A model generated the notes under the pieces. It saw only the letters and a program-made list of their open reading frames with translations. It searched no databases and was not told the DNA's origin. The translations under genes were made by a program, and so were the position numbers. This document shows, piece after piece, positions 3,444-58,196 of a stretch of DNA of 64,000 nucleotides. The stretch comes from Moniliella sp. 'wahieum' (taxonomy: Eukaryota), in contig RSEE01000149.1 in the NCBI GenBank assembly GCA_003971905.1, forward strand, positions 1 through 64,000, written 5' to 3'. How positions within the stretch are numbered: the first letter of the stretch is position 1; each line of letters begins with the position of its first letter.

Positions 3444-3603
3444 TGACTAGTGACTAGTGACTAGTGACTAGTGACGCGTGACGAAGAGCAACTCCATCAC
3501 ACTTTGCTCCGGCCGCCGCCGCAGGAAGGGTGGGTCGAACATGTCTGCCCGGAAAAAGGCAGTTAAATACGTTTAACGATAAACGTTAAACGTTAAACGT
3601 TAA
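3444..3603. repeat. Heptamer palindromic microarrays (TGACTAG)4-TGACGCG and (TAAACGT)3
   Basis: Read directly at 3444-3483 and 3580-3603. Confidence 0.9.
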
Positions 3604-4600
3604 CTGCGCTATGTATCTTCGTGCTGCCACACCGAAGGGCATCTGGTGGCGGCTAGGCCATCGACATCGATCATCTGGCTACTCAGACTGAGTATACCTT
3701 GTCGCGGTCTCACCTGCTAATCCTAGCGGGTGGGAGAGCCTCACCGAAGTCACTCCGCAGCATAGTCACTAGCTACACTACAGAGACGCTCCTCAGGCTC
3801 AGCGATGAGATTCATCCCTCATCGGCCTCATCCTTTGCGAAAAGAAGCACAAGGACCAACAGCAAGTGAAGCCTGTAGCGCCGTCGACGCGTCGAAGCGC
3901 GAACCGCAGTCAAATTAGGCAAGGTGGAGGTCCGAAAAGGAAAATCGGAGGTACACCTGAGCCACAGTATGTCGGCCATCACATGCACACAATACGTACC
4001 ATACACAGGAGGTCTCCGACGTTCAAGAAGACCAGTTGGGAAAAGGGAGAGTCTACGGAGCTTCCGGGAGAACAACGTTTTGCCCCCGTTGCCGGAACTG
4101 CGTTGATGCAGTTGATGGCTTGCCTCGATTACCATGAAAGCACAGGTAGGCAGACTACAGGACACTCTTGGGTGAGCTGGTGAACGGCAAAAGTGTGCTA
4201 CCCAACATAGGTGCCTGCGGTTTGCGGCGTGACGCGCGACATATGTAACACAACCACAGTCAGTTCCAGGCCTGCTCAGGCGCTCGGACCTTGAGGCAGC
4301 CCAACAAGTGCTAACCGCGCCGCGTTACGCAGCACTGGCTCTGCTCAGATCTGCCTCGGAACGGCCTGGTAGGCCTGGTGGCTCGTGCGCGTGGCGTGTG
4401 AAGCGTGACATGGGGCTTGTGTGACATGTGACATGTGACCACGTGACCATGTGCCACCACGACTGGCCCGTGCCTGCAGCCACCGATCGCAGCCACCATC
4501 GGACAGCCCGGCAGTGTCGTTCCGGGTAGCCCCGTTCCGCCGCTGTTGCGCCCCAGGCTGCCTTGGCCGGCGTGCATCATCCCTCCCCCCACTGATAGGC

Positions 4601-6146
4601 ATGCCGTCCAAATCGCGCAAAGCCAAGCACGCCAACCGCGCCGGCCGCACACCCGCCCCAGGCCACGGCGTATCCACCATGTCCCAGCCGCCCACCCTCC
4701 CGAAGCATCCCGACAACGATGCCCCAACGCCACCCGTGTCCTGGACAGCAGCTCGGACGCCGACAGCTCCAAGGACGCCGCTGCCTCGGCGACACACTCC
4801 GCGCCCCTCTCGGCCGACGCAGTGGCTATCATTCACAACCTCGCCCAGATCGGCCTTTCACATCTGCTCGAGACCGTCTCTCAGTCCACGGCATTCCAGC
4901 CCGCAGCTGAAGCCGCCTTGGCCGCCTTGGCCGCGCTGACCGCCAAGGTCCAACAGCACGCGGAGGATGCAAGGGCCGATTCCCAGCAAGACACAGAGTC
5001 GATGTCCACGTTTGGCAAGGAACCTGCCTCTTCCCGTTCGTCCTTCGTCTCGCTCCATCACCGCATGACCGCCGCAGAAGGTCAGCTCGGCGTCTGGGCC
5101 GACGACGCATCTGCCCGGGCCGAGACTGCCTCCGCCGCGGATTCCCAAGATGACGTCTCCACTCAGCCCGCCCTCCCCAGGACCGAGCTGTAGCTCGAAC
5201 TCAACGAGCGTCTCAACGCCGTCGAACACCAGCTGGCCCAGCTCCAACTCAACGCGCCTCCGGTTCCCCCTCCTCCACCGCTGCTGCGGCCACCCCCGCC
5301 CCTCCAGCTGCCGCCGCAGCCACCCCGCGCCGTCCGCCCAGTCCGCCCAGTCCGCGCCGTCCGCCAAGTCCGCGCCGTCCACCCAGTCCGCGCCGTCCGT
5401 CCAGGCCAAACCCTCCACCCAGGCTGTACCCCGCTGCCCCGCAGGCCCACAAACCTGCCGTGACTACTCCCTGGGCACGTCATCCCGATGCTTCCCGGCC
5501 GTTGAGCCGATTCCCAACCTCGGTTATTTGAGCAACGGAGCCGCGCATCTGGTCGCGCCGGGTCCTTGGGTTGGCGCCCCTCCCTACGAGCCCACCCATC
5601 CCGTTCTTGCGCAGACCTGGACCGCATCTTCGGCGGCCCCATCAACACCACCTGGTGGGGTTATCGCGACTTGTTCTTCCGTGTCTGGGGCTGGCGTGGG
5701 GTGTGCGGTGACGCCAACCTGTCCAGGTTTGTCCTAGACAAACTGCCTGAAACATTCGTAACTTGTTCCTCTGCGACCCCCGTTTCACCCACATGGTCTT
5801 CTATGGTGACCTACCAGCTATATTGGAGCAGCTCGACCGTCATTTCGGCCGCCCTGTCACCCGCGACGAGTTCTATCTAGCCGTGTCGGACAAGTGGGCC
5901 ATCCGTCACGAAACGTACTTTTCATACGAAAGGCGGCACCTGGCCATCCTGCGTGCAATTGAGGGCTTCTGTAGTGACAGAGCGGCGGTCCGCTCTCTGA
6001 TCCAGGGCATACCGATGGTGGTGAGCTCCGAGCTGTGGAACGTGGACCTCCCGACCCCCGATGCGGTCAATAGAGCCGTCTACACGATTCTGTGTGAAAA
6101 CGGAAGCGAGCACACCGGTCACTATACCGTCTGGCCCGACACTTAA
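4601..6146 (+). pseudogene. Degenerate retrotransposon gag/capsid-like ORF (coiled-coil, Pro-rich linker, CA-like C-terminus), no pol
   Basis: The C-terminal segment HETYFSYERRHLAILRAIEGFCSDRAAVRSLIQGIPMVVSSELWNVDLPTPDAVNRAV resembles the Ty3/gypsy capsid C-terminal pattern (E-x-x-x-x-Y-x-x-R ... FI.GLP ... P.T). In-frame TAG at 5191-5193 plus frameshifts. Identified by eye only. Confidence 0.45.
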
Positions 6147-7958: not shown

Positions 7959-10900
7959 AATGGCACTGGAACGAGCTCCTGATGGATGGGTGGTATGGTG
8001 TGGGCGGCGGATGGGGTATGATATGTGAGGGGCGATAGGGGGCGTGGGTTTGGAGACGTTGCTCGGAGATGCTTCTCTTATATAGAGGCCGGCTGGGTCC
8101 AATAGGCATCGTCTCCAAGTGGGTGGTGGGGTGTAGATGCGTAATGCGTAACGGCGGAGAGACAGAGGGGACATCAAAGGGAAGGCACCGGTGGGTGACG
8201 TGGCAGCAAAAGCATCAATATATCGTGAATTAAAGCGTATCGAGATACTGCGGACAGGGCCACACAGGAGAGGCACTTGTTTACGATGCCTGATCCCCCT
8301 GGGTCCGCAGCCAACCAACGCGGCCAGGGCGGTGGTGCAGTGGATGCGACGGTGCCCCGCCCATGTCCGAAAGTCAAAAAGTAGTACTATAGCAAACGCA
8401 GCGTTCTTCGCCAGCCAGCAACCAACAAGTCGCCACAACAAGCCATCTCGGCGCTCGGCAAAAAGCGTATACTAGAGAGAGCACCAAGCTTCTGTGTGCT
8501 GGTGGTGCGCTGCCAGCCACCCTCGGCGATTGTCAGCCTATCCATATCATCCGCTGTCCCGCCGAGCCACGGAGAAGGATGGTGTGGCGCAGTCGCCGCC
8601 TCTCATCTCTCGGCGAGACTGACAGGTATAATATACTGCCTAAGTAATTGGACTATTGCGCCTATACCAATGGCTCTATACCTGGTGTGAACTGCTTCAC
8701 ATGCGTATATCCCGCCACCGTCTATTTGGCTACACAATGTGTGCCTGTGGACCGTCAAGACGTGACGCGCTTGACGCCCTTTTGCCCTTACCCAACTGTT
8801 ATTGTTGCCCTCATCCCCTCTCTCAGGCCGGCTTTCGAGTGGCGCCGGGACCAGGGCGAGGTGGAGAAGGAAGCGATACTGGTAAGCCCGCTGTGCTCTT
8901 GAAGGAGCACAATAAAAGGATGGCCGCTTCTCGCTTACAACCGCTCGATGTGCTCCATGAAAATCGCAGAAGGGAAGCCTCCAGACTGATGCCAAAACCC
9001 GTCTCTGCCCACAGTCAACATGGATTGCTCTGATGCTAATGGGAATGTCAACGTCGTTAACGGCATGGAAATCTGGCCAAGCATAGACCCCATTCACATA
9101 TACGAACAATATGCCGGATGGCAAGAACTCCTTGAAGTTGGGGTATGTCCCTGGCATCCTTCATCATGCACATGCCACGGGCGTTCTCGTCGGTTGGGTT
9201 TGTGTACATTAATGATGATACGAGGAGATCTCGTCAATTCCTGAGATCTCATTGTCCATATACGTGTACATGAACTTACATGATGTGGGTAGTATAAAGA
9301 GCGGCCGATGAAGAATCGCTCGGGAGTGTGTTGGGACCAACCCCAATTAGAAAAGCAGAGGTGTTGGGGGGGAATCGGTCACACGACGACGTATGGTGGT
9401 GGGTACATGCTATTTGTCTCTCTGCTTCCCCATCCAAACGAGGAAGCTGCCGACAGCGGAGGGACATAAAAGCGCATTGCTTATGTGGAGCTATAATGGT
9501 AATGAAGGGAGTGCTCCAGTGGACCTTTTCCTTAATAGCCTGTTATTCATTGAACTCAATTGTGGTCTATGGCGTAACCATATCATTGACCGAGTTTTAA
9601 AGTTGGGACAAAGAAACGCTGTGCCTAAACGCGTTGCTTATTTGTGCCAAGCGGGCCGATTAAGAAACCAGGGGAATCGCCAGCAGGTCTATACTAGGAT
9701 AACTTTTGGGTCTTATTGCTCACTTAGTACTTATACAAGTTTTCTTCCAGCGGATGGTAACATTTTCCCGGCCGATGTACCTTTAGTAACAGGGGGGGGG
9801 GGGTTATGCATTATGCATTTGGGTTCTTACCAGTTATGAGAGCGTGGGCTGTCTCGTCGATTTTATCGCTGTAGCACAGCCTGGCATGAGTGCATGAGGT
9901 GCAAGCGCTGCCCCGGCCCCAACCCCCCGCGTTGGCTCGTTCCTAGCGAACTTTAGTCTGTCAATAAATCACCTCAAACGGTTTGAACATTGGATGGCGC
10001 ATCTGCATCAGATCTCAGATTTTCACGCATCATGCATCATGCATCGTGCTAGTACGCATCGTGCAAGTTGGCCAGCAAAGATGATGCGATACAGTCACAT
10101 GCCACGCACTGAAAAAGAGAGTCCGCCAGCGGCATTTAACAAAACAACTTGCTTGGCAGTCACCGGTTTCTCTCGTTGTGTTTCTCTCTCTCGAGCCTCT
10201 CCTTGGCCCGATCGGTCTAATGCATCATGCATCATGCATTTTGTCCCCCCTCTTTCCGCTTCCTGGCAAGCGCTGCACCAGCACCACAAAATCCGCAAGC
10301 AGAACAGGATAGGTCGCTGTGAGCGCTGGGATCATACGCGTCACGCTAGCCACTTGCCGTTTTCCCAGAGAGCGGCAGAGGGTCTAGGAAAGCAAGGCTT
10401 TTGATGCGCCCGTGTATTGGCCAGTGTGGTGATGGATTAATGCTTGGCTAGACCACGGAGTCTGGCCGCCTGTTGTCACTTGTCATCTAGTCACATGCCC
10501 CTGTCGCTCTTGTGCCTCGGGTGAGGCGGGAGGGAGACAGCGGGGCAGCATGGGTTGTCGCTTAACTGCTTGAGCCGCTAGCGCAAGCGCCTGCCTGTGC
10601 TACGGCGGGGATGGCTCCAGAGGGATGTGTGTTGGGGGTGGAGTTTTTCCTGGGACTGAGAACTGAGGTACTGGGTATTCAGACTGAGTTCGCAGACACC
10701 AGCGCGTCAGCCACTGGGCAGTACTCGTGTACCTGCATCGGCTGTCTCTGCGGACAGTCCCCCGTCCGGCGCGGGCAGAAGGTGAAGCTAAGACCATAAA
10801 GCCATCACTTGCAGCATGGGGTTGACGCGTGACGTGTGACGCATGACGCGGCGGCAGCAGCACACTGAGGGCCTGCGGATCGCCGCAAGACACGGCACGT

Positions 10901-12148
10901 GTGCCCGTCGCGCAACCAGCGCATCCCGCAGCGCCCAGCCCCACCAGGCCCCTACCCGGGGCACGTTGTGTGTGATGGGTCTCAGCCCCCGGCCGCTGCA
11001 AAGACACGTGCGGGCCAGCCCCGGCCAGCCTAACGAGCTAACCGCATACGCGCATAACCGGGAGGCGGCAACTGATACCCGGGAACCAGTGTTCCGTTCA
11101 GAAGGCACCTGTCCCGCTGCTCTGCTGTCCCGCTGCTCTGCTGCCCCGCTGCTTTGCTACCCCAGATCGCCCCGGGCCAAACACAGCTATCGCCGCAACC
11201 GCCAAGGAGCCTCGACACGCCTCTCGACCTGCTCGACTGCTCCCCTGCCCGTCACATGTCACATGTCACATGGCATCACCCTGTTTCCTCTCCACCCATC
11301 TGGCCCATCCAAACCCACAAGCTCACACTACCCCACCGCCACGCGTCCCCGGCGTTACCTGTGCCCGAGTGGGCACCAGCAACTGCCCCTAACAGCCACG
11401 TACTCCTAAGGGCCACACTATGAGAAGTCACTAGGTCACTAGTCACTGAATCACTGAATCACTAGCTCCACTGGCAACTAAGCAGTATCCACCCTTCTTG
11501 GAGAGCCTAGCGTCGTCGTGCCGTGGCCCCCAACAGCAGGTCCCCCAGCACCGGACCAGCAACCCTCGGCAACCCCAACCGCAAAAGGCTTAGTGAATAA
11601 TGGTTGAGGTCCGAAAAGGTGCGATCATTAATTCATTAGTTGAGCCGTGAGGCCCGGCGCCGGAAGCTGGAGCGGCCTCTGAGGCCTGAGGGCCTGAGGC
11701 ACAGTCTCATCGTCAGACACAGGCACGCCAAACCCCCGATAGAGTCCCCACGGGGCTCCACCCATCGCCGCCATATCTCACACCCAGTGCCTGGCTGGAG
11801 CCTGGCAAAGCCAAGAACAGCGCGGCTCTCTCCAGCCGCAGCTGCTCGGTCTCCACATACGTACCTCAAACGTGTCTTGAAGCTTCAGGAGGATGCAGGA
11901 TGCATCATGCATCACATGCCACAGGTATACTGCCTCTCTGAGATGTGAGATGTGGTCGCTGGCGGATACACCGCGTACTGAAGGGCACTCCCTTCGAACT
12001 CCCCCTCCCCTCCCTGCCCCGCCAGCGGGGTAAGTTCGAGCCAAAGCGAGAGAAAACGGGATATAAATACGGCCCCATTTCTCTACTGCCCACTACTTCT
12101 CCACATCCCCCCCCCCACCCCCTCACTCCCCTTCCAGCCCCTTGCACT

Positions 12149-13744: not shown

Positions 13745-15170
13745 TCTATGATCCTCGGCCACTCCTCGTTCCACCCGCCTGGATCGGCATCGAGATGGTA
13801 GATATACCCTTGCACCTTGCCTTCCCTCTGGCCTTCCCTCTGTCTCTCCATATTTTGCTCCCCCTTCCCTTCTCTTCCCTTGTACTTTCATTCGCACCCC
13901 CCACCACCTCGCTCTAGCTGCTACTCGATGCAGTAATGTGACTACACGACAACTGGACAACCGAATCCTCTGCTCCTCTGGGTATAGTAGTAGTATACAC
14001 AGTCACGTTGGAGAGAACGATAGTGGTGTTCAAAGAGCAAACATCGCCAACGATTGCCTCAGGCCGCTGCTTCTCTATACCGCTTTAACCACCCTGCGTT
14101 AAGGTCGATTGTCGAGACGAATGCGGAGGATCAGTGAGTGTGCACGCGGCCCGAGTGGCCTGGGCCGGCGCCCTATGCGTAAGCGTATACGGGACATCCA
14201 AAGGATTGAACCGATGCACTCTCACCGAGGTGAAGGCGCTCCTGGACCTAATTCAAGCCCACGCCCGCGCCCACGTCCACGTCCACGTCCACTCCGACGC
14301 GCCTGGAGAGAAACGCCGACCTTCCCCCTGGTTTGGGACTGTTCTGTGCCTCGGACCGATGGATGGATCGGGTTTCACCTGGGTGCATTGGACAAACACA
14401 GGGGCTATCGCGACACAGTGGCGGGGCGAAGATTCCGCCGGTGCACGTAGGTTGAACGTTGGTGGCAGCCAATCACTGAGTTCTGAGTCTGTTGCCATTC
14501 TGTTGCTACGGGCACGATCTGGGGGCGCCTCCGCTCGCTGGTTCACATGTCACAGCTGCATCACATGTGATGTCACATGTCACAAGATCACGGCATCCCC
14601 ATCGAGGCATCTGCGTCGTTGCCGTCCACAAGGGCGATTAATCGGCAGTGCATCCAAAAGGCGGGTGTTTGCGGTGCGGCGGTCTGAGGGTACAGTGGGA
14701 GGGAGGGTTTGATGGTGGTCGTTGCTGAGTGAGCGATGAGCTCACTAGCAGAGCAGAGGGAGCGATGAGTGGTTGCTGAGCCACTTACAACGAGTACTGC
14801 AGCCTGAAGGGGGGACGCGGAAGATTGGCCAAAGTGGGCGGTTAATAAGAAAAGCCGAGTTGTCGGCCGGCCGGCAGGGGGCGAGTGGGCGGCCATCTAA
14901 CGTCATTTGCCTGAGCCGGGCGCAATTCGATTTGGGTAGGGTTGCCGGGGGAGGCGGATTTGAAACGGGCGCGGGTGGCCTGCCGCGGACATGCAGTGCT
15001 CAGACGGAGTACCCCAGTCCCGGCCCCAGGTGGGCTGGGTCAGTCAGTACTCCGTTCCTCAGGACGGTGTGCGGGGTGGGTATCCACTCCGTCGGGATAT
15101 TGCTCCGTCGATGGCGCTAGCTGGGCTTGCCGCTCTTTCCCACCATCTCCATCTCCTTTGGTCATCCACC

Positions 15171-16903: not shown

Positions 16904-16942
16904 GATATCAATATCAATATCAATATCAATATCAATATCAAT
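16904..16942. repeat. (ATATCA)6 microsatellite in 3' flank
   Basis: gatatcaatatcaatatcaatatcaatatcaatatcaat. Confidence 0.9.
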
Positions 16943-17890
16943 CTCACTATCAATGTCAACATCAGAGCATTGAACATGCGTGGCGAGAAAAAGAGATGGA
17001 TGGGGCTGTTCGCTGGCAAACGGGACTGGAGTTAGTACCTAGTGGAAAGGAGAGGTGGCCAGAGCGACGCGTGCGGCAAGGCCCCAGCAGCCACAGCCAC
17101 TGGCGAGGCACAGAGTGGGTCGTGCATGCTATGTACCATCGAATCCTGTGCCTGTGCACGCGTGGTGTAGACGGTGATATATGATATATGATAGGCGTGG
17201 GAGGGTGGGGTGAGGGAGGCACTAGGGCAGCCTGGGCCCGCAGCAGAGCAGCGTGCGAGGCAGTTCGGAGTTGGGAGGCAGCAAGCCATGCAGCAGGGAG
17301 TGCTTCGATACATCAGCAGCTCGCGGCTCTTGCGGCGCCCCAGCCCATAGCAAGCGCCTGTGTGCGCAGGTGGCGCCGGCAGAGGCGAGCTGTGCGGCAG
17401 CCGAGCCAGCGCGGCAGGCAGGCAGCGTGCAAGGGCAGTGGCTGCGAGCAGGGCGGTGTCTGAGCACCCAGGCTCAGCACCCGAGAGACCAGCCGACAGA
17501 GCACACAGGAAGCCGAGCAGCGCCTATCCAGTATCCATCCCTCGCCCAACCCATCCCACACGCCCTGTCGTCGGCCACCCGAAAATGCAAAATGCGCCCC
17601 ACCGCTCGGCGCTGCAGCCGGGGGCGCACGTACGAAAAAACGTAGCGCTGGTAGGCAACACAAGAGGGCGTACGCACTATGTACCTCGGCTCGATATGTA
17701 TTTTTTTTCTTTGCTTCGCTCCGTCCGCTCTACGCCCCCTCGATGGGCACGAGCCACCCCCCCCCCCCTCCACCCTCGGCTGCGCCTGCTGAAGGACACC
17801 ACCACCATCTGCCCCTCCTCCGGCCCATTCTTTGCCCATGCAGGCCCACGACTTTTATCTGCCCTACCACCCCGCCAAACGACCACAGCG

Positions 17891-28269: not shown

Positions 28270-28930
28270 GTCCAGAGCAACACGCCTGGCCAAGGAGAAG
28301 CGTCAACCAGCAACTCGAAACCAACCTGCGGTTCTACATCTCGACGGTCGAACCCCAACTGCGCTATTACCCTCTTGCCCTCCGCCGAGTTCGTTGCCCA
28401 AAAAAAATGCCGTGAGCGCAATGAAACACCCGCAGGACAAACTCATTCAAGTTGATCCTAATAAGCCACGAGTCTACACCCGCGTTATAACTGCCGGACG
28501 CTCCGCTTCGCCGTTACCCCCCCCCCCCCCCCCCCCCCCCCCTTTACCTTGTGGGCCCTTCAAATTATTGGAGAAAGTCGATGGGAATGCCCACCGGTTG
28601 GACTTGCCCCGCGACCTCCATGCCATCAATAACCCTGTAGTCAACGCGGCCTACTTTGACCCTCTTCGACCTGACCGTGTCGACGCCCGCTCCTATCCCC
28701 CAGAGGTGCCGGCGCCAGAGATTGTTGGCGGTCACACAGCCTGGCCGTGTCAAGGAGATCCTCGACCGTCGGCGCGGTCGACGGGCCTACCCATAGTTCG
28801 TTCATTGGACTGGTCTCCCTACCAGCCGCAACGGGTGGATCCCAGCGTCGGAGCTCAGAGTGTTGTCAGTGCAACGCGACTTGGTCGCCCCCCCGTGACA
28901 TTACCCCTCCATCTTGGCTGCGCGTAGGTA
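28270..28930 (+). mobile_element. Degenerate Ty3/gypsy chromovirus pol 3' end (integrase tail, GPF motif, chromodomain)
   Basis: Frames give VNQQLETNLRFYIS (integrase), GPFKLLEKVDGNAHRLDLP...NPVVN (GPY/F module) and VKEILDRRRGRRAYP*FVHWTGLPTSRNGWIPASEL (chromodomain with an in-frame stop). Confidence 0.85.
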
Positions 28931-28933
28931 TTC

Positions 28934-29428: not shown

Positions 29429-29924
29429 GTGGCCATCAGCCCTCACCCAGCGGGGAGGGGCCAGCAGCAAAACCGATCGCATTTCGCTCTTCTCTGGCGA
29501 TTCCTCTTGCATCTCTTCGCTGGCATTGGTGGCCAGAAGAGTCAGGGATAAGTGTTGGACGAGATAAGTTTCTTCAGTGCCCTTTGCCACGCGTGTTGCT
29601 CTATGGGGCGGAGTTGTCGAAGCTTTGGGGTGCAGCACGTCTATTACTCATCTCTCCATCGATCGACTGACTGACTGCATGCCGTGTGCGTCACATGTGA
29701 CAGTGACATGTGACATCACATGCATCACGCCAGATGCAGTTTTGCCTTCTGCCTTGTTTTTAGCCACTCGCCCGCCGCCCCGGCCCTTACGTGGGTGTCC
29801 ACGTCACCGTCCAGTACGAAACCCCCTCACCCTTTCTCCCTCCCGTCAACGGCGGCGGGCGATGGACAGCGCGGGACAATAAAAAAATCCGCTGCCACCG
29901 CCACCACCACATTTCTACCCCAAA

Positions 29925-34062: not shown

Positions 34063-34520
34063 GGTCTAGGTCCGTTTGCAACCAGTCAGTCTCACGGCGG
34101 GCGAAAATGAGGAGAGACGCCAGAGCATGGACGCTGTAATACTCACTGGTGGAGGGGAGAGGTAATAACGAAGAAGAAACGGGAAGACACAGGAGAGCGT
34201 AGCAGGTTGGACGTATTGGATGAAAGAGACTAATTTATATAGCAGTGACGCTGTCGTATGCCTCCATGGAAAAGCAGACGGAGAGACGATAGAGCGCCAC
34301 ACCACAGCCACCGTCCCGTGCTGTCTTCCTGCCGCCTAGATCGGTTCCAGAAAGTTTGGTTCCCGTTCCCACCACTGGGCTGTGACATATCAGCACCAAA
34401 ACCAACCATCTCGCGTGGCGGCCTACTGAGGCTGAGGCTGTTGAGGCATAATGCATGAGGTGTGCCATGATACAAGATATGAGCCTCACGCATCGCATAG
34501 GTTCTAAAAGGTACAACAAC

Positions 34521-34640
34521 GCTTCAAGCTTCAAGCTTCAAGCTTCGCAAGGGCTTCAAGCATTGCATAAAGAGCGACATCAAGCATCATGCATCAAGCT
34601 TCAACCATTTCAACGTTCAACGTTGAGACGTTGAGTTCAA
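34521..34640. repeat. Heptamer palindromic arrays (TCAAGCT)3, TCATGCA, TCAACGT
   Basis: Read directly from the sequence. Confidence 0.88.
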
Positions 34641-36081
34641 CTATAAAGTCGGGGCGGCTGATCTTCAATGCTCTTGCTTCAAACTGCAACGCCTTACTAA
34701 GGACTGAGACGGCAGGTGCGGTCTGTTGCTCTGGTGGTATTACTGGAAAGCACAGCTGAAACAAGCTGAAAGCCGACGCGACCTCGGGGCAGGCAGTTTT
34801 GAACGTGCGCAACGTTGATCGTTGAATGTCCTCCTCGAGCTTGAAGCTTCGAAGCTCTCTGAAGAGATAGCGAGGCTATAGTGACGATAGCGGGGAGGGC
34901 AAGTTACGCGTTACGGCTGATGAGGCCTGAGGGTAGAAAACGTCCACCGTGTTGCTGCACGAAGCCCATTAGGGGTGGACGTGAACGTGTTGAGCCATAT
35001 CGTGTCACAGATGCCGTAGCACCAGCGTCAGCGTCAGCGTCTTTGGCGCCATCAACGCTAACACCCGCGAGACGGTCCCTCCTCTCTCGCTACCTAGTGC
35101 ATCGCCTCCCGTCCATCGCCAAGCAGAGGGTACAGCCCAGTGGTGCACATGAGCCTCATGCCCCAAGCTCCGAAGCTAGCTCCTAGCACGGCGATAGCTG
35201 GAGGTAAGCGAGCGCTGCGTTACCTATATTATGTGCGTTTTCCTGTGCCCACTCGTACTCATCGAGAAGCGTTGAGTTGAGGCTCAACGTTGAGGCTCAA
35301 CGCTCAACGGTATTGGAAATGGACCGCCCACATCACGCATCAACCTGTCAGCAGAGATGCCATGATGCAGATGATGCACTGCCAATGACATGAATGACAC
35401 GACAGACCCTCCGCTTGCAGCTTGCACCGACACGGACAGTGGCCACTGCCAGCGACGTGTTTGCATATATTCCCGTCCATTTTGAGCCGCGCGCTGACAG
35501 GAGGGTGCCCACTAGCGCGCGAGCGCCCTTTGAGCTTGAAGCATGAAGTTTGGCCCCTTTCGGTTCGGCAGCACGGACTACCGGACGCCGGACGACGGGT
35601 CGGAGTGTGGTGTAGCGCGTTGTTAGATCTTAGATCTTAAACGCTAGCGACAAGCACATCAGAGACAACTCCGAGGAAGACAGCCGCCAGCGGAAAAACA
35701 AGAACGCTTCGATTCCACGTCCTCGGCAGTCCGCGCACCAAGTAAGAAGTACCCTTCCCAGCCAGAAACCGGAGCGCCTGACGCCTGACTGGGCCAGCCT
35801 GAGGCCGGCCTGAGGGGGGCCTGAGGCCCGACATGTGACATGTCCTGGGACCTCCATCCCCCTCGTCCCCGGCGCAGGCCGAGACAAGACCACGCCCCAC
35901 TACAGACAACACACACACACAAAGCACATGTCCCACTGGGCTTGCTAGTCCGACCGTTGTGCGTCTGTCTCCCTCCCTTCCTCCACTCGTCCACTCATCC
36001 ACTCATCCATCCACTCATCCATCAATCTCCATCCATTGGTACCCGACCGGTCCGGCGCAGGGCCAGAGGGGAAGGGTAAGT

Positions 36082-39360: not shown

Positions 39361-39570
39361 GCTGTGGAGGGCGTGGGCAGTGGCAGAGGAGGGGGTGGGC
39401 GCAAACAAACGCAAAAAAAAGAAGCAGCCCTTGCATCCACCCGGCCTGCCGTGGAGTGATACCCGCCTGGGAGCCCCGCCCTCTGCCTGTCGCCTCTCTG
39501 ACTCACTCCTTCCCCCGTCTTCGGACGCGCGGAACGGGGCGGAATGCGCCGCTGCACATTTCAACTCTAG

Positions 39571-39611
39571 CGTTCAACGTTCAACGTTCAACATTCAACG
39601 TTCAACATTCA
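39571..39611. repeat. (TCAACRT)5 heptamer array upstream of ValRS
   Basis: cgttcaacgttcaacgttcaacattcaacgttcaacattca. Confidence 0.9.
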
Positions 39612-42700: not shown

Positions 42701-43984
42701 AATGAGGCACTCAGTACAATGCTCGAAAGCAGAAGGAGAAGAAGGAGAAGAACGTACCTGAAGATCGCATGTGTTTTTGCACCTCGACAAGAAAGTCCCA
42801 GATTTCGTGGCAGCCGGATCTTTCCTGGAACGAAAGAGCCATCTCCGTTCCTGAAGGTTCGGTCCATACGATCAGGGTATCTACTCGTCCAGAACCATCG
42901 GTCAGCAATCTGCGCATTCGCACTCGCACTCGCATTCGCATTTAGAAGAGAGGAACAAGTACGAACCCTGTGTTGCTTGTACACATCGTCCTTCAACAAT
43001 GCGGAAAAGAGGAGCAAGTCGTCCTTGTCAAACTCAGAGGAGACAACAATGATGTACTGGCGTGCCCAGTCCTGGGGGTGCCAGGCTCGACAGGAGAGGG
43101 TTGCGACACGGCAAGGTCAGAAGGGGCAGAATCGGTCTTTTCAGCCTTAGCTTGCCGGTCTCCATCCGCATCCCCATCAACATCTGCATCTGCATCTGCA
43201 TCCGCATCTGTGTCGTCTGGGAACTCGTCCAGGTCCGAGTGGGTGATGGGCAGGGTGGAACAGGCAGCCTCATGCTTGGCAATCAGCAGGGCCCGGTCCG
43301 ACTCTTCATCGTAAACACCGGCACAGTACCCCGTCCCCAAATCGACCCAGGTACCGCCTACCATTTCGTACACCTTGACGCGCCTGGCCGTGCCGCACTG
43401 GTGGAACGAGCCGCGGCTAAAGGTGGTCTGTTGACTGAGCCGCGTAGGATCGCGCACGGGGGTGTCCAGCGCAGGCTCACGCTCAGGCGGAGCAGGTTCA
43501 GCCAAAGCCGTGCCGAGGTCGAGTGGTCCCGACGCGCTGTCACCATGAAATAAGAGCAAGTCTGGCTCGCTGTTGTCGGGGCCATTGGCGGGGGTGGGTT
43601 CAGGGACAGAAGGCGCGTCGAGCGAGGGCCCAGCTGAGTCCTCAGTCGAACACGAGTCGGAGCTGAGAGGAGGATCGCCCACATGGCCCGAAGGCCACGC
43701 TGGTTCCGTACCAAGCTGTGGATCGGGATAGAGGGGAGCAGCCGTAGAAGGGAAAGCGGGATCTGGGGTGGGCGAGTGCTCGTCGGATGCTTCGAGCGCA
43801 GGAGGGCCGGGGCCCCCCTCGGCCGGGTCAGCAGTTGGGCCAGGCAGCAGCTGCGGATCGGATGGGGGAAGGCGAGTGCGAGTGGGGAGGGGACGGAGAG
43901 GGGCGGAGGCGAGGCGTGCTTCAGCGGGGGGTCGCTCATGGCGAGCGAGGGCGGAGGCGAGCGGAGCTGGGGGCTGGATGCCAT
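39797..43984 (-). CDS. PSY2: Protein phosphatase 4 regulatory subunit 3 (Psy2/SMEK); introns 42881-42966 and 42696-42757; ends approximate
   Basis: EVH1-like RRVKVYEM..W.DLGTGYC and DTLIVWTEP..MALSFQE..GC.EIW; SMK-1 region GLLEYDP.F...KASYRDY, KIQHTYRL.FLRDVVL; acidic tail. Confidence 0.92.
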
Positions 43985-47000: not shown

Positions 47001-48424
47001 TCAAGCTGCCACTGTCGCTGCCGCTGCCGTCGGCTCAAGCGAGGTGGGAGACGTATGGTGCAAAACGGCATAGCCACCCTCGGGGCAGTCGATTCAGCCG
47101 AGTCCGAAACTTCCACCTCGTCAGCTTCAGCTTCAGCCTCGGCCTCGTTCGGCAGCTTGGGCGTCTTCTCCTCCGTCACCGGGGGGGAACGGGAGAACCA
47201 ACGGGACAAAAGCGAAGCACGGCGCGGCTGGGGGATGGCTTGTGGCTTGGAACGTGTTTCCTCCTCAGTGGGAAGAGCAGCGGTTTCCTCGTCCGTTTTG
47301 GCCATGGCAACTGGGCATCCAGCTCAGCCAGCTCCCGCTGAAGGCCGCACGGCGTTCCTGTGCCGCCGACCGCGTGAGCGGGGCGAGAGGGGCCGAGTGG
47401 GGGGCTTCGTTCAGGGGGGAGGAGGAGGCGGAGGGGGAAGTGGAAGCGGAAGAGCGGAAAAGAGGAAGGGGACGCCGCCGTAGCGGCCCCCAGGGCACCA
47501 AAGATACTAGGGAAGGAAGCACCGTCGTCGATGTGGTTTCACCGGGATGAGCCCAGTGTGGGGACCATCTTTCCTCCTATCGCAGAACGGGCCTGATCAG
47601 CCACCGAGCTGACCCCGGCCGCACCGAGCATTGTGCCGGCCTTGTCCAAGGCTGAGGGGGCATACGCCCGAACCGCACTCAAAAGAAAGGCGTTGGTGGC
47701 GGAGGAAGTGCGCTGCTGGGGCGGGTCCTGTGACGGAGGGGGAGGCTAGCAAGCAGGTCAGCCCATTCCATTGATCGTGGGTTGTAATAAGACGTACAAT
47801 GTTCCACAGTGCCTCGCGGGCCTTGTAGTAGGCACCCTGTCCGGCGGTGAGGATCGACTGCTTCAGAGTCGTCCGGGCCTCAACCACAGCTGCGTCAATC
47901 TCGCGCTCGTGGTCGGCCAAGAAAGGACCGAGGTGGGTGGTGTACAAGTAAGCCGCGCCCTGGTAACACAAATGGATCGTCAGTGCTCAGTGGCAACTCT
48001 GGCTGTTGTCGTCGCACAACGGAAGTACCGACAACAACGTACCTGTGTCTGAGGCAGGATCAGCCAGAGTGTAAATGCAAGTTTGCTCTCGGAGTAGAAT
48101 GGCATCCTATGCTACGGTCAGTACGCATTGAAGATGGAAGCAAATGGGCAGAGTGGACCTACCAGCGCCAAGACCAACCCAGGAACATCTCGCACGTCTC
48201 GACAACGGCAATGACGGACCAGTACATGAGCCAGGTCTCCAGCTCGGCCACCTCGGTGGGGGACTTGATCCCCTGTGCCGGAGCAGGCGGAATCCGCCAG
48301 GCGTACTGGCCTGCGGTGGGGCCTGGACGCGATGGGGCCGTGATGGCCTTGTAGGTGGCATAGAGCGGGTAAACGTATCCCGCCACCGAGGTGGTGGCCA
48401 CAATGGGAGATGGAGGAGCAGCAT
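47001..48424 (-). CDS. TB2/DP1/HVA22 (REEP/Yop1-related) ER membrane protein with about 3 introns; ends approximate
   Basis: GYVYPLYATYKAI, WLMYWSV, PFYSESKLAF.LWLILPQTQ-GAAYLY..HLGPFLADHEREID; GT..AG introns near 48108-48163, 47962-48043 and 47750-47795. Confidence 0.85.
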
Positions 48425-51930: not shown

Positions 51931-53499
51931 GGTGCCGGGAGAGTGAGCAGAGGAAAGTGGAGGTGCGAGGTGTGGAGGTGGTAGTGGTGTGGGGGGGGAA
52001 GGGGTGATAGGGAGACAAGGTGAACGTAGGCCGAACAGACGGGGCGGGAGGCTTAAATACGCGGGAGGAGAGGGGGGGCGGCAGGCGGCGTGCCTGAGGC
52101 GGCAGGCGCAGGCGTGCAAGGATCGCAGGCGCCAGGCTAGCGTCCTGCCTGAGCGTCCGGCCTCAGCGCGCCCTGGCGACGCGGGCGATGCACTGCGCGG
52201 GAAGAAGGGCCAGCGGTGCATAGCAAGACACACCGGCAGGACAGCAGTGTTGGGCATGCGGACCTCGCACGTCGGGACAGTGGGAGGCAGTTGGCGCCGT
52301 GGGCCGCCGGCGTGTGCCCAGGTGCGCTCAGAGCGCTCAGAGCGCTCTGGTGCGCCTGCATGTGCGGCTGCATCTGCCTGCACCTGGCAGGCGAGGGTGT
52401 GCGACATGCCCCGTGGGGAGCGTGCGGCGCCTGGGCAGTGTCCGCGCGCCAACCCCACACTCCCCGGGCGGCGGTGACCGGTTGGGCCCCCCGCCGCGAC
52501 AAGAGCGGCGAGCTGCTGGATGCGCCGGCGCAGCGGCAAGCCCGATCGCATGCCCCGCTGGGCACGGCGCCTGTGTGTGCGCAGCCGGGGGGGCAGCTGC
52601 AACATGCGCCCGGGTGGTGCGTGGGGCCGTGCGTGATGCCCCCGCCCCGTTGTCGCGCCGCGAGCAAGCGCGGCCCTGTGCGGGATGCCGCCCGCCGCGC
52701 GGCGATATCGGCCCGCATGCGGGCAGTGTGTCTGCAACAACGAGGGCAGTGAGGCTGCCATGGGTGAGCCTCGATCATCGATCACGGGTTCTCTTTGCGT
52801 TCCATATTGAGTAACCGAGTCCGCAGTGCACCAGAGCGCCTCGCCTCGGAGCGCCTGGCCAGGCATGGCCGCGGCAAGTAAGTACGATGGGAGCGCGACT
52901 CAGTAGCATCGGCGGCAGGAACCACCCGGAGCGGCAGGTACCGCTGGCAGCCTGCATACCTCCCAGGGCCTGCTGGCTTGTGTGCGATCAGAGTGTGGCG
53001 CCGTGGCTCAGTACTCAGTGCGCTCAGTACGCTGTGTGTGCATGACGCATGACGCGTGGCGCGTGACGGTCGGGGGCAGCGTGCATCGCGCATGGGACCG
53101 CTTTGTTCCTATGCCAGACATGTGCATGTGGTGCGGGCAGCAGACACAGTGGCAAGCGCCTGCGCTCAGCCACCCAGTCTCACGCACTTTGCCCACCGCA
53201 CCCTCCCCCAGAACCACATCAGAGCACCGGCAGAACACCGCACGGGGGGGTTGTGCCTCTCGGATCCCAACAGCCGCCGCACTACGCCACCCAGCCCCCA
53301 TCCCCCACAGCCGGCGCTTCACCAACACATCCGGCGTCGAGGCCGAAACAGCCCCCCCTCCCATTGACCGGTGACCTCTCCCCCCCAAAGCCGCAAACGT
53401 GGCGTGCAACGGCGGCTGTAGGAGACTGGTCTGGCATGGATGACATGGAGCAACCACGATGAGCGGCACGCCTCCGGCTGTGAGAGTGTGCTCAGCTGG

Positions 53500-56400
53500 G
53501 CCCTCAGCCTCAGGCCTGAGGACTTGCGGCCTGAGGAGGCGCACGAGGGCGTACGCGTTTTTAGCCTCAGGATCCAGGTTGGTACAAGGGCTGGTCTGCC
53601 CACAGTGTTCTGCACGTGCCTACGTTCGACATGCAACGTCCAACGTACTTCGACGTCTTCAACCTCCAACGTCAATGTTTTCAACGTCCAAGCGACGTTG
53701 AGATCTGAGATGCGTTACATCACTAGTCACTAGTCACTTCGTAGTAAAATCCCCTAAAAATCCCCCACCTCGGACTCTTGCCTCCCGTTTTGTGGGGAAT
53801 ACATTTGGTCATGCGATTCGCCTTGCTGCTTAATTAGCTCAATTGATTGCTTATGCCCACCGCTTCTCCACACTCGCTCTCCGCAGTACTCGGCCGCCCT
53901 CGGCTCAGTCACGAGTCAGGCCTCAGGATAAACTGTAGCTATATGGCCCAAGAGGCTGAACCCCAAAACAGTAGTCGACTAGTCACCATCTTGACGTCTC
54001 ATGTCAAAACTGTTCAGGTCCTATGGCAAGTCTCGGGCCTCCCCGTCCCAACCGCGAAAACCTGTGTTGAGTGCGGCTAAGCGCTAATATGCCACCGACG
54101 ACAACGAGGTCTAAGACCCCAGGCTGAGCTGGAGCGTCACATGTCACATGGCACAGGGCCTCACTATGCCAATCCATTACAAGTGCGCCCACAATCTGCC
54201 GTGGGAGACCTTCTATACCCGGTGACTGGTTGGTTGACCACGTGCAGAAAAATACACATTTTGGGAGCATGCACGGTGATACCGGTGATATATGATGCCG
54301 TGGTGACACTGTGACAAGAACGCGTTGCGACGCGTGAACTGTGAATCGTTAAACGGGAAGGCCTAAGGCCTAAGGAATGATTAATGAACTTTGCCTCCGC
54401 TTCTTGTTTGTGGCTGACGTGCGCATAGGACAGTGGGCTGGAGGCCCTCGTAGGCTTAAGCCTTAGGACTTAGGACTTAGGTACTAAGTGCGCACCCAAG
54501 GGACTGGTGTTGCCCAAAGGCTGAGCGGCTGAACGCGCGCTGAGGCTGAGGGCTGGGCTCCCCAACATCAGCGACACTTGAAGCTTGACTTCTGTGGCGG
54601 CGGTGACCGGTGGACGGTGAACGTGTGAACATTGAAGTGGTGCCAATATATCGAGCTCAACGTTCAATGTCAACAACGCACATACCCCGATGGCAGATCT
54701 CAGATCATCGATCATCGATCATTTTCATGCACCTCACCGACCATCTGAATCAGCATGCCTCCATACTCACGCAATGCCCACACCAATCACCGGACGGATC
54801 ACACACCAATCACCGGATGGGTCACACACTGGATGCTGTAGAGCCGATGCAGGCCATAGCAAACCCCACAAAGACATTCCCATTGCACATGTGGACACCC
54901 CCAGTAGTAGTAGTAGTACCTAGTACAGCGATGCGCACTTTCTTTGCCCCAAATAAGAACCCAGCAATCGTTCTTTCCTTGCCAATCCGTCCACGACCTG
55001 AGGACCTGAGCGTCTGAGCAATAAGATCAGGCACTGACCTCAAGTACCGCATTGGGCTGAAGCTCAGGCCCTGAAGCCTTAGCGCCTTCGCTGAGCTCAG
55101 CGCTGCGCAGGGCTGAAGAGACTGCTGAGACGCTGAGGTCTGAGGCTCGGGGTGTACCTAACAGGTACAACGGATGATCGATGAACCGTGGTCTACGTCA
55201 GAACAATTCTGTTCCTCGCACTCTCCATCCGACATGCATCATGCATCCTGTACTAAAAGCGCGGCCATGTGGGGCTTGGGGGCAACAAGGGGGGTACCTT
55301 GGGGAACTGAGCAGGGGGACCTACTGGGGAGACTTATGCGAGGCGGCCCCGTTCCGCCTCTGTTCCGCTCCTTCCTGTTGCGCCTCCGGGCTGCCTTTCG
55401 CCTGATTGCATCCACACCACCTCATCCCCGGCCTTGCTCGCCTGCCACTGCCACAAGACTCCATTGGGGCCTCTGGCCTCAATGGGGCCTCTTGATTTTA
55501 CGTTTAACGTTTAACGTTTAACGTTTAACCCCCTCCGTAACATGTAACAAGCAAGATGGGCCCATTTCTTCACCGTGCCTGCGGCCCTGATCGATGGGAG
55601 AGTGGGATCAATTCGAACAATGATGCTGTGAGATGATCGATGATCGATGTCAGGTAGATATTAGATCCACGGATGCCAACATGTCAATGGTCGAAGCGCC
55701 ATGCGCCAAGCGCCAAGCTTCAAGAGCGAAGCTTAAGCATCCGTGTTGCCCACTCGACATCGATCACCTGTATCCGTACTCTGGCTTCAGACGCCTGGCG
55801 GCCTGGCGAGCCACCGGAACGGATTCTCGTAACCGCACAACCGGGGCATAACCGGGCGTAAGCGCGTGGCCGCATAACCGGTAACAACCGACGGGCGGAC
55901 GCGCGTAGCCACATAACTGGTAACTGAAACATTACACCCGCTGACCGGCCTAAGGCCTAAGGCCTAACGGGCCTAACGGCTTATTAACGGCCTAACCGGC
56001 TAACCGTACTCGGCTTTCTCTGTCCCTTTATTGTTGGTTGTTTTGCGCAAGATGAGCACTCAAAGCAGCTTGAAGCTTGAAGCCATTCGACGAATCTTCA
56101 TCAATGAGATTGCGATCAGAAGGTTCATTGCCGAGTATACCGCGTACACCGTTGCATACCTGCTGATATGTCTTCCTCTGTTTTGTATAACCTCACTTTG
56201 AGACTTAAATTGCATCCCGCGAGGTGACACATGTGTGCATAACGTGCATGTGATATGAGGGAGCCACAGACAGTACATGAGAAGAGAGTGTCCTAAAGCA
56301 CCCCAGAGTACGTGAAGTTTGCGCGTGAGCGAGACCCGTGACGCCGTGACCCGTCAAAGAACGTCTCGCCCAGGCCCAATTGCGAGTATACGCCTCAGTG

Positions 56401-58196
56401 CCCCCCTGGCTCACATAAGAAAGATTCATATTCCTAGCAAAGGGGGCAATAGAAGCTGTGCGAATATGGAGCTTGAAAAATGGCCCTATTGCTCAAGCTT
56501 CCAAGTATCGAGCTTCAGGCGGGTCAGGAGGTCTCAGGGATTCAAGCTTTATTAAGCTTCAGGGGCAGCAGAGTGTCGTTAGAGCTTTAAAGCTTCAACA
56601 ACAGCAGACTTCAAGCTTCAGACCTTCAGAGCTACTATAACCTCAGACCTCGGCGCCCTAGTACAAGCAACACGTTCTAAACCATTTGTCGCGTGGGCCA
56701 AGAGCGCCAAGAACCAACCAAGAAGCAAACGGGAAGAAAACGAGTAGGTACTAATAGTAAGACCAAAAAGCTACGCGTAACTAGGTATGACACTGGTGTT
56801 TGACGTGCGGCGCAAGTGGGATGTTCGTTGCGCACTAGGCACTATAGGCATGGCCGCTCCGAAAACAAGTCCGAGAGCCGAAACAGAGATGCGGGAGGGT
56901 CTTCGGAACATGTCACTCACTCGTCACTGGCTCTACCTCCGCGGTAGTGACTCGTGACAAGTGACAAGTGACTAGTAACTAGTAACTAGCGCGTACGAGT
57001 GAGTGATTCCGGCCCGACTGGATGTGACAGCTGTGCTCCTTGTTGCAAAATCCAAGGCAGGCGGCTAAGGCGGCGTCATATGCATGACATAGCGACAAAT
57101 ATAGGGGCCAGAGGAACTAACAACGAGGGCCTCGCCTGCGTCACTTACACCAGAGTCTCAGGGCGCAACAGGCTCTGCAGCTGAGAGTACTCCATTACTG
57201 GGTATAGTAGTACACATGCGACATGTGATAGCTCAGCCTGCGCGCTCTGACTGGCTCGCCCCAGGTCCCACAGGCTACCCCAGGCACCTGCATGCGCGGG
57301 TGTGGGAGGGGTAAAAAAAAACGGGCGGTTATACAAACTCCCCCAGCATGTTGGCTGGGGCGTACCGGATCGGAAATATATAGGGTGGTGCGAGTGTAAC
57401 ATATTCGATCATCACGACGTCAACGTTCAACGCTCACACGTCGCGTTCAACATCAGTAAAGCACACAGGGGGGCAGGAGAATAGCGATGGATACCTAGGA
57501 ACCATTATGCATTTTAGTGTAGCCAAATGGTCATTCCTACTCTAGTACTAAATGTTGACTACTAGCACGTCTGGAGAATATTCCGTCTCTACGGGGTTAG
57601 TAGTTTCCAACATCGTTCCCACCCCCAGACCTCACATGTTCACATAGTGCTGGCTCATGGCGCTCATGCATCATGCATCATGATCTACCAACTATCGCCA
57701 CCGGCAACTACGGCATCTCTCGCGGCAGGAACAATGTACATGTAACGTGCAGTCAGGTACCCCATCACAACTTCTTTCCACTTTAGCATATTCCCGTCAG
57801 TAACATGTACCACCTCAGGCCTCATCTTGGGGTGAGCAGCGTGGGAGGGGGCAAAGATGAGATCTGAGAAGAGGTCTCTGGTTGACGATAATTAGTGGGC
57901 AACTGGAAATAACTAGCAGACTAGCCATAGAGAGGTGAACGTGGTGACCGGGAACGTTGAACGGATGAACACGGTGAGCGGGGCGAGCACTTAGATTTCA
58001 GAGCGCTCAGAAGAGCCGAAGTGTATGAGGTGTGTATGAGAGTGGGCCCATACTATTTTCGACCTGTGTGCGTTACAGAGGTTTTGGGTGACGGCTCCGC
58101 AGACAAGACCCCAGGCCTCAATATTCAATCCAGTCGACAGAGTGAAACCATTTCTATAATAGAGAGGGGCCAGTGACGCGTGACGCGCGTGACGCG
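53500..58196. repeat. Gene-free region dense in heptamer palindromic microarrays
   Basis: Examples: (TCACTAG) 53720-53738, (TCACATG) 54137-54150, (TAAGGCC) 54359-54375 and 55947-55967, (TCATCGA) 54704-54721, (TTAACGT) 55500-55528, (TGAAGCT) 56067-56083, TGA/TAA-CTAG 56948-56989, (TCATGCA) 57664-57682, (TGACGCG) 58174-58196. Confidence 0.9.

Follow-up and report, generated by a model that had tools for sequence, protein, structure and literature searches.

A 64,000-nucleotide stretch of the fungus Moniliella sp. 'wahieum' (contig RSEE01000149.1, positions 1 to 64,000 of the forward strand; hereafter the window) hosts a family of short tandem heptamer arrays that differ in sequence and share one symmetry rule. 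Each unit consists of T-N-A, in which N is the middle base, plus a 4-bp palindromic core, and is thus equivalent to a 7-bp odd palindrome, xyTNAy'x'; read in another phase, the same unit is a hexameric palindrome bounded by A and T (A....T) plus one free base. Our data show that this family is real, strongly non-random, rule-bound, and non-coding, and they point to an unusual mechanism that makes or keeps the repeats. Tentatively, and with a rough probability of 40%, we read the arrays as microsatellites that formed in place and are limited to one motif class by a structural filter on slippage.

One symmetry rule underlies most period-7 arrays

Defining an array as a perfect period-7 run of at least 15 bp with a non-trivial unit (one poly-C run was not counted), we found 41 arrays in the window, whereas 200 dinucleotide-preserving shuffles averaged 0.985 and never exceeded 6. 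T-N-A plus a 4-bp palindrome is the unit in 26 of the 41 (shuffle mean, 0.005), and the share of heptamer classes that satisfy this rule by chance is 2.7% (64 of 2,340). A further 8 arrays have T-N-A and a core with one mismatched pair, and a single array, GAATTCA, has T-N-A and two mismatched pairs; the latter, read in another phase, is the sole odd palindrome centered on C-N-G. The units of the other 6 arrays lack any T-N-A. Sorted by center, the odd-palindromic arrays number 26 for T-N-A, 0 for A-N-T, 1 for C-N-G, and 0 for G-N-C, with shuffle means of 0.005, 0.005, 0.055, and 0.055, respectively. The initial annotation of this DNA had proposed the rule and suggested a comparison of T-N-A with the three other symmetric centers; the shuffle check run on the window bears out the rule and its specificity for T-N-A. 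It had also argued that ordinary slippage should not select such motifs, and unselective slippage indeed fails to account for the pattern.

Pairs of T-N-A spaced 7 bp apart revealed the same dependence. Those enclosing a palindromic core occurred 98 times (versus 7.2 in 100 shuffles), those with one mismatched core pair showed a mild excess (70 versus 43.5), and those with two mismatched pairs showed none (59 versus 67.8). Palindromic cores between other centers were found at frequencies close to those in the shuffles, i.e., 6 versus 7.4 for A-N-T, 33 versus 30.0 for C-N-G, and 24 versus 29.2 for G-N-C. When we counted 4-bp palindromes that recur after a spacer of any type, a 3-base spacer gave 96 cases and spacers of 0-2 or 4-8 bases gave 26-60; the spacer was T-N-A in 42 of those 96 cases, whereas T-N-A makes up 4.2% of non-coding trinucleotide frames. 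The T-N-A center and the palindromic core are therefore both needed.

The enrichment is that of a whole motif class and not of a few motifs. Among the 16 possible four-base palindromes, 15 occur between two T-N-A trinucleotides (AATT is absent), more than the at least 12 cores initially claimed, and 10 different cores are represented among the perfect arrays. The class is also bound to its period. By the same criterion there are 41 arrays at period 7, 5 at period 8, and 10 at period 9; T-N-A palindromes account for none of the 34 arrays at period 5, no array is self-complementary at period 6 (0 of 39) or period 8 (0 of 5), and one of the 10 period-9 arrays (58177-58197) consists of T-N-A plus a 6-bp palindrome.

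The rule has left its mark on the non-coding DNA at large. Hexameric palindromes of the A....T class occur 237 times there versus 112 expected, with 14 of the 16 members above expectation, whereas the other classes do not exceed theirs (T....A, 101 versus 117; C....G, 153 versus 191; G....C, 177 versus 194). This excess persists outside the arrays (169 versus 106-118). Strong self-similarity at lag 7, the highest of lags 2-15 under a strict criterion, covers 862 bp of the 39.6 kb of predicted non-coding DNA and 79 bp of predicted coding DNA. In addition, T-N-A-centered palindromes with arms of at least 6 bases number 34 versus 2.9 expected, and even-length palindromes are not enriched.

Two side observations concern neighboring periods. 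A second odd-palindromic array of period 9, GCTCAGAGC, lies at 52324-52347 and is centered on C-N-G. Period-6 arrays of TCAGCT, TCGATC, and TCTGCA, each a 4-bp palindrome plus TC, are found at 16905-16964, 47121-47137, 31883-31931, and 43159-43210; by their sequence they look like derivatives of the heptamer rule that lost one base and were then amplified. A 4-bp palindrome recurs after 2 bases in 47 cases, a little over the counts for spacers of 0, 1, 4, and 6 bases.

The arrays grow by direct tandem duplication and stay short

Copy numbers are low: of the 30 perfect arrays that measure 14 bp or more, 23 contain two full copies, 5 contain three, and 2 contain four. Many of them sit within longer, decayed arrays that carry point changes and small insertions, and period-7 arrays detected by Tandem Repeats Finder show 79-100% matches. 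Collectively, the arrays stay short (2 to ~5 copies) and decay by substitutions and small insertions or deletions, a turnover that leaves the non-coding DNA enriched in A....T-bounded hexameric palindromes.

The middle base reveals how the arrays grow. At a distance of 7 bp, TGA is followed by TGA in 58 cases and TCA by TCA in 57, as against roughly 10-25 at neighboring distances, whereas TGA followed by TCA (13 cases) and TCA followed by TGA (15 cases) remain at baseline (~12). N is identical in 80 of the 98 neighboring unit pairs, 60 of these being TGA/TCA and 20 TAA/TTA. Since N is inherited along the array, growth is by direct head-to-tail tandem duplication, as in replication slippage.

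This observation also argues against fold-back extension at T-N-A hairpins, which the initial annotation had suggested. Copying primed by a folded-back hairpin, or an inverted duplication where a DNA end is broken or stalled, would suit the near self-complementarity of the arrays and their predicted hairpins with T-N-A loops; however, the perfect inverted repeats it makes should place TCA after TGA, and it is the same-N pairs that are enriched about fourfold. Even-length palindromes are not enriched either, and we consider this process very improbable and count it among the largely excluded ones.

Adjacent units occasionally have different palindromic cores (4 cases versus 0.51 in shuffles). 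In two of them, CTAG/CGCG at 3465 and TGCA/AGCT at 34587, the neighboring cores differ by a symmetric double substitution, and the second pair is preceded by a one-step intermediate, AGCA. Correction within a near-palindrome would yield such core pairs, although two cases do not amount to a test.

We also tried a fixed-phase 7-bp target duplication, as left by a staggered cut, and rejected it: each of the seven phases fits just 15-18 of the 30 arrays, in a comparison that later mutations at array ends blunt.

The arrays lie in non-coding DNA, tentatively on the promoter side of genes

We used a coding map from a rough self-trained codon model solely to define non-coding status and the side of genes. 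Of the 33 chains in which at least three T-N-A follow one another every 7 bp, and of the 30 perfect arrays measuring 14 bp or more, not one falls in a predicted coding segment, in agreement with the initial impression that the arrays avoid coding exons. To some extent this is inevitable, since a TGA or TAA that recurs every 7 bases puts stops into all three frames of one strand.

Gaps with at least one 5' gene end hold all 30 arrays, whereas the three convergent gaps (5.0 of 38.7 kb) hold none versus ~3.9 expected. Several arrays lie 78-303 bp upstream of coding starts; for example, the composite array at 11890-11954 is 78 bp upstream of the coding segment of a major facilitator superfamily (MFS) transporter, and the array at 39568-39611 is directly upstream of the leucyl-tRNA synthetase reading frame. 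Because the arrays are clustered and the gene map is rough, we treat the promoter-side location as a lead and not as a result. It would fit a regulatory role and a mutational process favored by open or negatively supercoiled promoter DNA equally well.

Inventory of the arrays

The arrays are listed below with forward-strand coordinates, copy numbers of the unit after the multiplication sign x, and perfect stretches where they are shorter than the whole. All sites named initially were read, and the units stated for them are present at every one. The initial list of cores likewise stood as to presence; GTAC (53008), CCGG (55875), and TTAA (54378), however, occur as single or imperfect units only. 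One further core, TATA (17175), was missing from that list and forms a perfect array.

3437..3483: (TGA-CTAG) x4.9, perfect at 3442-3475, then TGA-CGCG and TGA
3569..3606: (TAA-ACGT) x3.4, perfect at 3580-3603, degenerate copies on the left
4405..4457: (TGA-CATG) x2.9, perfect at 4420-4439, degenerate copies on both sides
9804..9819: (TTA-TGCA) x2.3
10022..10050: (TCA-TGCA) x2.7, perfect at 10027-10045
10217..10243: TAA-TGCA, then (TCA-TGCA) x2.9, perfect at 10220-10239
10823..10850: TGA-CGCG / TGA-CGTG / TGA-CGCA / TGA-CGCG, imperfect
11248..11276: (TCA-CATG) x3.1, perfect at 11251-11272
11426..11465: (TCA-CTAG)-type, degenerate, with insertions (AGTCACT, periods 7 + 8)
11676..11700: (TGA-GGCC), imperfect, one extra base
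11890..11954: composite of (AGGATGC)2, (TCA-TGCA) x2.1 at 11900-11914, TCA-CATG, and (TGA-GATG) x2.3
14570..14584: (TCA-CATG) x2.1
17175..17193: (TGA-TATA) x2.7, perfect
29691..29716: (TGA-CATG) x2, perfect at 29703-29716, degenerate copy on the left
34518..34548: (TCA-AGCT) x3.7, perfect at 34521-34546
34578..34641: composite of TCA-AGCA / TCA-TGCA / TCA-AGCT, (TCA-ACGT) x2.3 at 34609-34624, and TGA units
35276..35309: TCA-ACGT / TCA-ACGC units plus TGA-GGC, degenerate
35623..35639: (TTA-GATC) x2.4
35775..35843: (TGA-CGCC)2, degenerate TGA-GGCC, and (TGA-CATG) x2 at 35830-35843
39568..39611: (TCA-ACGT) x3.1, perfect at 39571-39592, then alternating TCA-ACAT
52771..52784: (TCA-TCGA) x2
53008..53070: TCA-GTAC units (imperfect), then TGA-CGCA / TGA-CGCG / TGG-CGCG
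53500..53740: degenerate TCA/TGA-GGCC plus TCA-ACGT, TGA-GATC at 53699, and (TCA-CTAG) x2.7 at 53720-53738
54135..54159: (TCA-CATG) x2.1 at 54136-54150
54358..54387: (TAA-GGCC) x2.6 at 54358-54375, then TGA-TTAA and TGA
54455..54483: (TTA-GGAC) x2.9, core one mismatched pair off a palindrome
54701..54724: (TCA-TCGA) x2.9 at 54703-54722
55233..55247: (TCA-TGCA) x2.1
55495..55531: (TTA-ACGT) x4.3 at 55500-55529
55632..55649: (TGA-TCGA) x2.6
55694..55724: (CAA-GCGC)-type, spacer one base off T-N-A, running into AAGCTT units
55830..56000: degenerate TAA-CCGG plus TAA-GGCC, with (TAA-GGCC) x3 at 55947-55967
56067..56083: (TGA-AGCT) x2.4
56480..56625: dispersed TCA-AGCT / TTA-AGCT cluster, interrupted by other sequence
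56947..56991: composite of TGA-CTCG, (TGA-CAAG)2, TGA-CTAG, and (TAA-CTAG) x2.7
57662..57684: (TCA-TGCA) x2.7 at 57664-57682
58173..58197: (TGA-CGCG) x2.1, overlapping the period-9 array at 58177-58197 (TGA plus the 6-bp palindrome CGCGCG)
61353..61366: (TAA-CATG) x2

The (TGA-TATA) array adjoins a period-6 array, (ATATCA) x10. Arrays are densest in the window at 52900-61960, a segment of ~9 kb with no Pfam-matching open reading frame (ORF), no codon-model signal, and a GC content of 50-55%; it may contain unrecognized genes or be a special chromosomal region.

A proposed structural filter on slippage

We postulate that only units self-complementary around a T-N-A center are born or expand. 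A slipped-out strand of this type would fold into a small hairpin with a stem of 4-5 bp and T-N-A as its 3-base loop, and this fold would stabilize the misalignment and keep the loop out of reach of loop repair. In yeast, loop repair misses slipped-out loops that fold on themselves, and palindromes become unstable once they are long; long arrays, being long near-palindromes, would be lost, and under both effects short arrays would be numerous and long ones absent. Among the four symmetric centers, T-N-A alone combines weak pairing (two A:T pairs) with a flexible pyrimidine-purine step (TG, CA, or TA) in every case, properties that would favor local opening or kinking. A core could change and remain palindromic if, after a point mutation, the partner base in the near-palindrome were corrected to match. 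Predicted single-strand folds placed T-N-A in a 3-base loop on stems of 4-6 bp in 6 of the 8 rule arrays folded, the remaining 2 having 8-base loops. A requirement for at least four pairs in the stem would agree with the absence of the class at period 5, its presence at period 7, and its rarity at period 9.

Several points weigh against this explanation. The real rule arrays (-2.3 to -7.8 kcal/mol) are only modestly more stable than shuffles (z scores of -2.61 to +0.45), and with standard nearest-neighbor DNA energies, model arrays of three units gave mean fold energies of -6.03 kcal/mol for T-N-A, -6.13 for A-N-T, -8.08 for C-N-G, and -8.42 for G-N-C. T-N-A and A-N-T are the least stable classes in these models; hairpin stability by itself thus favors the wrong classes and fails to tell T-N-A from A-N-T (26 versus 0 arrays in the window). 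A hairpin needs ~11 bases and therefore explains growth at three or more units better than it explains the first duplication. Isolated, non-tandem T-N-A-centered odd palindromes are mildly enriched at most. The arguments from loop repair, palindrome instability, and flexibility are general knowledge, and every count derives from a single subtelomeric window of 64 kb at the end of a chromosome. Given the strictness against A-N-T, an enzyme or a reader protein stays in play.

Alternative explanations

In one alternative, the repeats are the work of a sequence- or structure-specific enzyme. A nuclease, nickase, or domesticated transposase that is symmetric (dimeric) and acts at T-N-A within a symmetric context would make staggered cuts whose fill-in leaves a 7-bp duplication, and each new unit would become a new target. 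The fixed period of 7 agrees with this, as does the T-N-A specificity that DNA energies leave unexplained, and a dimer cutting symmetrically around one base pair would see an odd palindrome. T-N-A is moreover the duplicated target of IS5 and PIF/Harbinger transposases, according to the accessible part of PMC2836001. Nevertheless, no duplication phase is allowed by more than 18 of the 30 arrays, a figure weakened by end mutations, and an enzyme reading T-N-A alone would also duplicate heptamers with non-palindromic flanks, which are not enriched (59 versus 67.8); a protein that reads 15 different palindromic flanks is implausible. A Pfam scan that took in 250 of the 328 ORFs of at least 90 amino acids (the 78 left out lie mostly at 26-44 kb) detected no nuclease or transposase domain, and the gene could lie elsewhere in the genome. 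We regard such an enzyme as unlikely, although it deserves serious attention. A wider version is that a lineage-specific DNA-processing activity (e.g., a domesticated IS5/PIF-Harbinger-type nuclease or a structure-specific nickase) writes 7-bp palindromic duplications at symmetric T-N-A sites in open promoter-side DNA, and that its products may serve as orientation-independent, structure-forming promoter or insulator elements; such a genome-wide enzymatic signature of mutation, too, we hold to be rather unlikely.

The arrays could instead be selected cis elements, either symmetric, orientation-independent promoter-side sites for a protein that reads DNA structure or shape, or three-frame stops for spurious transcripts. 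The confinement of all 30 arrays to gaps with a 5' gene end, several of them 78-303 bp upstream of coding starts, speaks for selection, as does the fact that T-N-A is the sole symmetric center carrying TGA or TAA. Contiguous 7-bp heptads are in addition a proven protein-binding architecture, as described for pSM19035 parS in the accessible part of PMC9499535. In bacteria, T-N-A plus CATG arrays occupy at least 122 loci versus ~1 expected by our own estimate, and one of them is found on a staphylococcal contig, next to DNA that is matched chiefly by conjugative plasmids. On the other hand, 15 cores in 64 kb cannot all be sites of one sequence-specific protein, ribbon-helix-helix proteins are not known from fungi, and short, decaying, irregularly placed arrays are what neutral turnover would leave. 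The absence from convergent gaps is weak evidence, with ~3.9 arrays expected and the arrays clustered and not independent. The strand with the stop codons bears no consistent relation to the neighboring gene; by eye, it is the sense strand in 3 of the 4 arrays nearest a start. Selection, like the enzyme, appears unlikely but is a serious rival.

The remaining two explanations are, like fold-back copying, largely excluded. The initial annotation had pointed to repeated footprints of PIF/Harbinger or similar transposons, where insertion at T-N-A and imprecise excision leave T-N-A, four bases, and T-N-A; if two bases stayed behind from each inverted end, they would form a 4-bp palindrome between the duplicated T-N-A, so that the grammar can be reproduced on paper. 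In the accessible part of PMC2836001, however, excision is precise in 109 of 110 events for this superfamily. Moreover, 15 cores would require many element families where one would not suffice, a repeat search of the window found no dispersed family or short inverted-repeat element, the ORFs scanned contain no transposase domain, and mismatch repair at N predicts a mixed N where the observed N is inherited; footprints are accordingly highly unlikely. A sequencing, base-calling, or assembly artifact is scarcely credible, since it would not respect gene boundaries, whereas the arrays keep to non-coding DNA, vary from site to site, and have decayed to differing degrees through point changes and indels.

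Genomic setting of the window

Telomere repeats, (TAACCC) x4.3, open the window at positions 1-26 and are followed by subtelomeric satellites, namely a C-rich 29-mer in 2-3 copies at 160-245 and an 11-bp satellite, GGTACGGAAGT, in 24.8 copies at 406-678 with a higher-order period of 55 bp. The GC content of the window is 50-66%. Ordinary fungal genes are encoded in it, several of them spread over more than one reading frame, which suggests introns. Those recognized by Pfam include an aldehyde dehydrogenase, MFS and sugar transporters, an AMP-binding enzyme, an OPT transporter, a PX-associated protein, a GDA1/CD39 protein, an alcohol dehydrogenase, a leucyl-tRNA synthetase, PP4R3, and a fatty-acid hydroxylase. 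The closest named relatives of the aldehyde dehydrogenase (~55% identical) belong to Ustilaginomycotina (Tilletiaria, Ustilago, Exobasidium, Pseudozyma, and Tilletia), and sequences without a species name reach 72% identity; we accordingly place the fungus among the smut-related basidiomycetes. No tRNA gene was detected and no Rfam family was matched in the window.

Other repeats include a poly-C run of 26 at 28517-28542 and a GC-rich 9-bp tandem repeat, GTCCGCCCA, in 8 copies at 5325-5423, with higher-order periods of 18 and 27 bp, which lies in or beside a predicted coding segment. Inverted-repeat arms of ~450 bp (28934-29378 and 32390-32837, 82-98% complementary) stand on either side of the GDA1/CD39 nucleoside phosphatase gene. 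This is the sole long inverted repeat in the window, and its outer ends lack a target-site duplication; judged from its sequence, it could be an invertible or duplicated flank and is no obvious transposon.

Significance

Microsatellite motifs are usually explained singly, whereas here one symmetry rule predicts which heptamers form arrays, with 26 of 41 arrays falling into a 2.7% subset. If hairpin-assisted slippage is the cause, this genome offers a natural experiment in which the influence of DNA secondary structure and of loop repair on the birth of repeats can be studied, with a built-in control, T-N-A versus A-N-T, that current energy models cannot explain. If an enzyme is the cause, they represent a new mutational signature. 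Either way, promoter-side DNA contains a noticeable proportion of them (of the 39.6 kb of non-coding DNA, at least 862 bp satisfy a strict criterion, and A....T hexamers are in twofold excess), and they should serve as highly polymorphic markers.

Comparison with known systems

Contiguous heptads bound by ribbon-helix-helix proteins resemble the arrays in having 7-bp units, few copies, a non-coding location, and a TCA/TGA core. In pSM19035 parS, 5'-WATCACW-3' is repeated 7-10 times, with one dimer per heptad, and the heptad is described as non-palindromic in the accessible part of PMC9499535. Such systems use one heptad per protein, whereas the window has 10 cores in its perfect arrays and 15 in all. 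No gene for a small DNA-binding protein or ParA was found near the arrays among the ORFs scanned, where the Pfam matches are ordinary fungal genes.

The bacterial arrays mentioned above are three units of T-N-A plus CATG, found at the at least 122 loci in bacteria of many phyla, Prevotella/Bacteroidaceae, Saccharibacteria, Parcubacteria, Streptomyces, and Staphylococcus included. They mostly have 3-4 copies, and 91 of 131 arrays have the same N throughout. Within the surrounding 684 kb, T-N-A palindromes account for 12 of 214 other period-7 arrays and A-N-T palindromes for 8, as against 26 of 41 for T-N-A in the fungal window; this specificity check covered the array flanks and not other centers at large. 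Given so few T-N-A palindromes in their surroundings, the bacterial arrays look like single-motif protein sites and do not follow the fungal grammar. A protein-based scan of bacterial and archaeal contigs with the PP4R3 exon gave no match.

Some features of the bacterial loci are of interest in themselves. Neighbors of the arrays include GTNAC-type heptads such as GTGACAA, and several Bacteroidales loci have two inverted arrays 150-200 bp apart. One Staphylococcus aureus contig carries, at 4960-5026, GTTAC/GTAAC heptads of either orientation that end with (GTAACAT) x3.7 just after a small gene. The DNA beside this array matches 58 plasmid records, 47 of which are typed conjugative, and in a related plasmid without the array the matching DNA adjoins a parA operon (the parA gene and a small ORF). 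The S. aureus array is probably a heptad operator or centromere.

PIF/Harbinger (IS5-type) elements share with the arrays a T-N-A-type trinucleotide at the center of the target. The accessible part of PMC2836001 describes a duplicated TAA/TTA target within an extended 9-bp preference, and an excision that leaves no footprint. A 9-bp palindromic target for maize PIF finds no confirmation there, as the paper does not contain the string 'palindrom' at all. In the window, by contrast, no element, inverted ends, or transposase was seen among the ORFs scanned, and TGA/TCA is commoner than TAA/TTA.

Our search found no published description of the T-N-A palindrome rule in fungi or elsewhere, most subscription journals lying outside its reach, and no paper with two or more of six motif words. 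The accessible part of a tandem-repeat survey (PMC3152781) does not cover Ustilago. The initial annotation had compared the arrays with a putative intergenic heptamer family of Ustilago (ATTCACG/ATTCGTG). As given there, ATTCACG equals TCA plus CGAT, and its core is not palindromic.

Cyanobacterial short tandemly repeated repetitive (STRR) sequences are abundant intergenic heptanucleotide tandem repeats; they differ in being limited to a handful of fixed motifs that are not palindromic and obey no symmetry rule. Template switching that corrects quasi-palindromes is known to cause point mutations and is not known to generate tandem arrays. Through it, a core change on one side would be copied to the other, as from CTAG to CGCG and from TGCA through AGCA to AGCT (2 clear cases).

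The closest working analogy is provided by hairpin-forming microsatellites, such as CAG/CTG, CGG, and the mini-loops of TTTA/CCTG, in which the slipped-out strand likewise pairs with itself and growth is by direct repetition. The window arrays never exceed ~5 copies, unlike these systems. Furthermore, each hairpin-forming microsatellite is a single motif of 3-4 bases, whereas the arrays described here are defined by a symmetry rule with a fixed T-N-A center that admits 64 possible heptamers.

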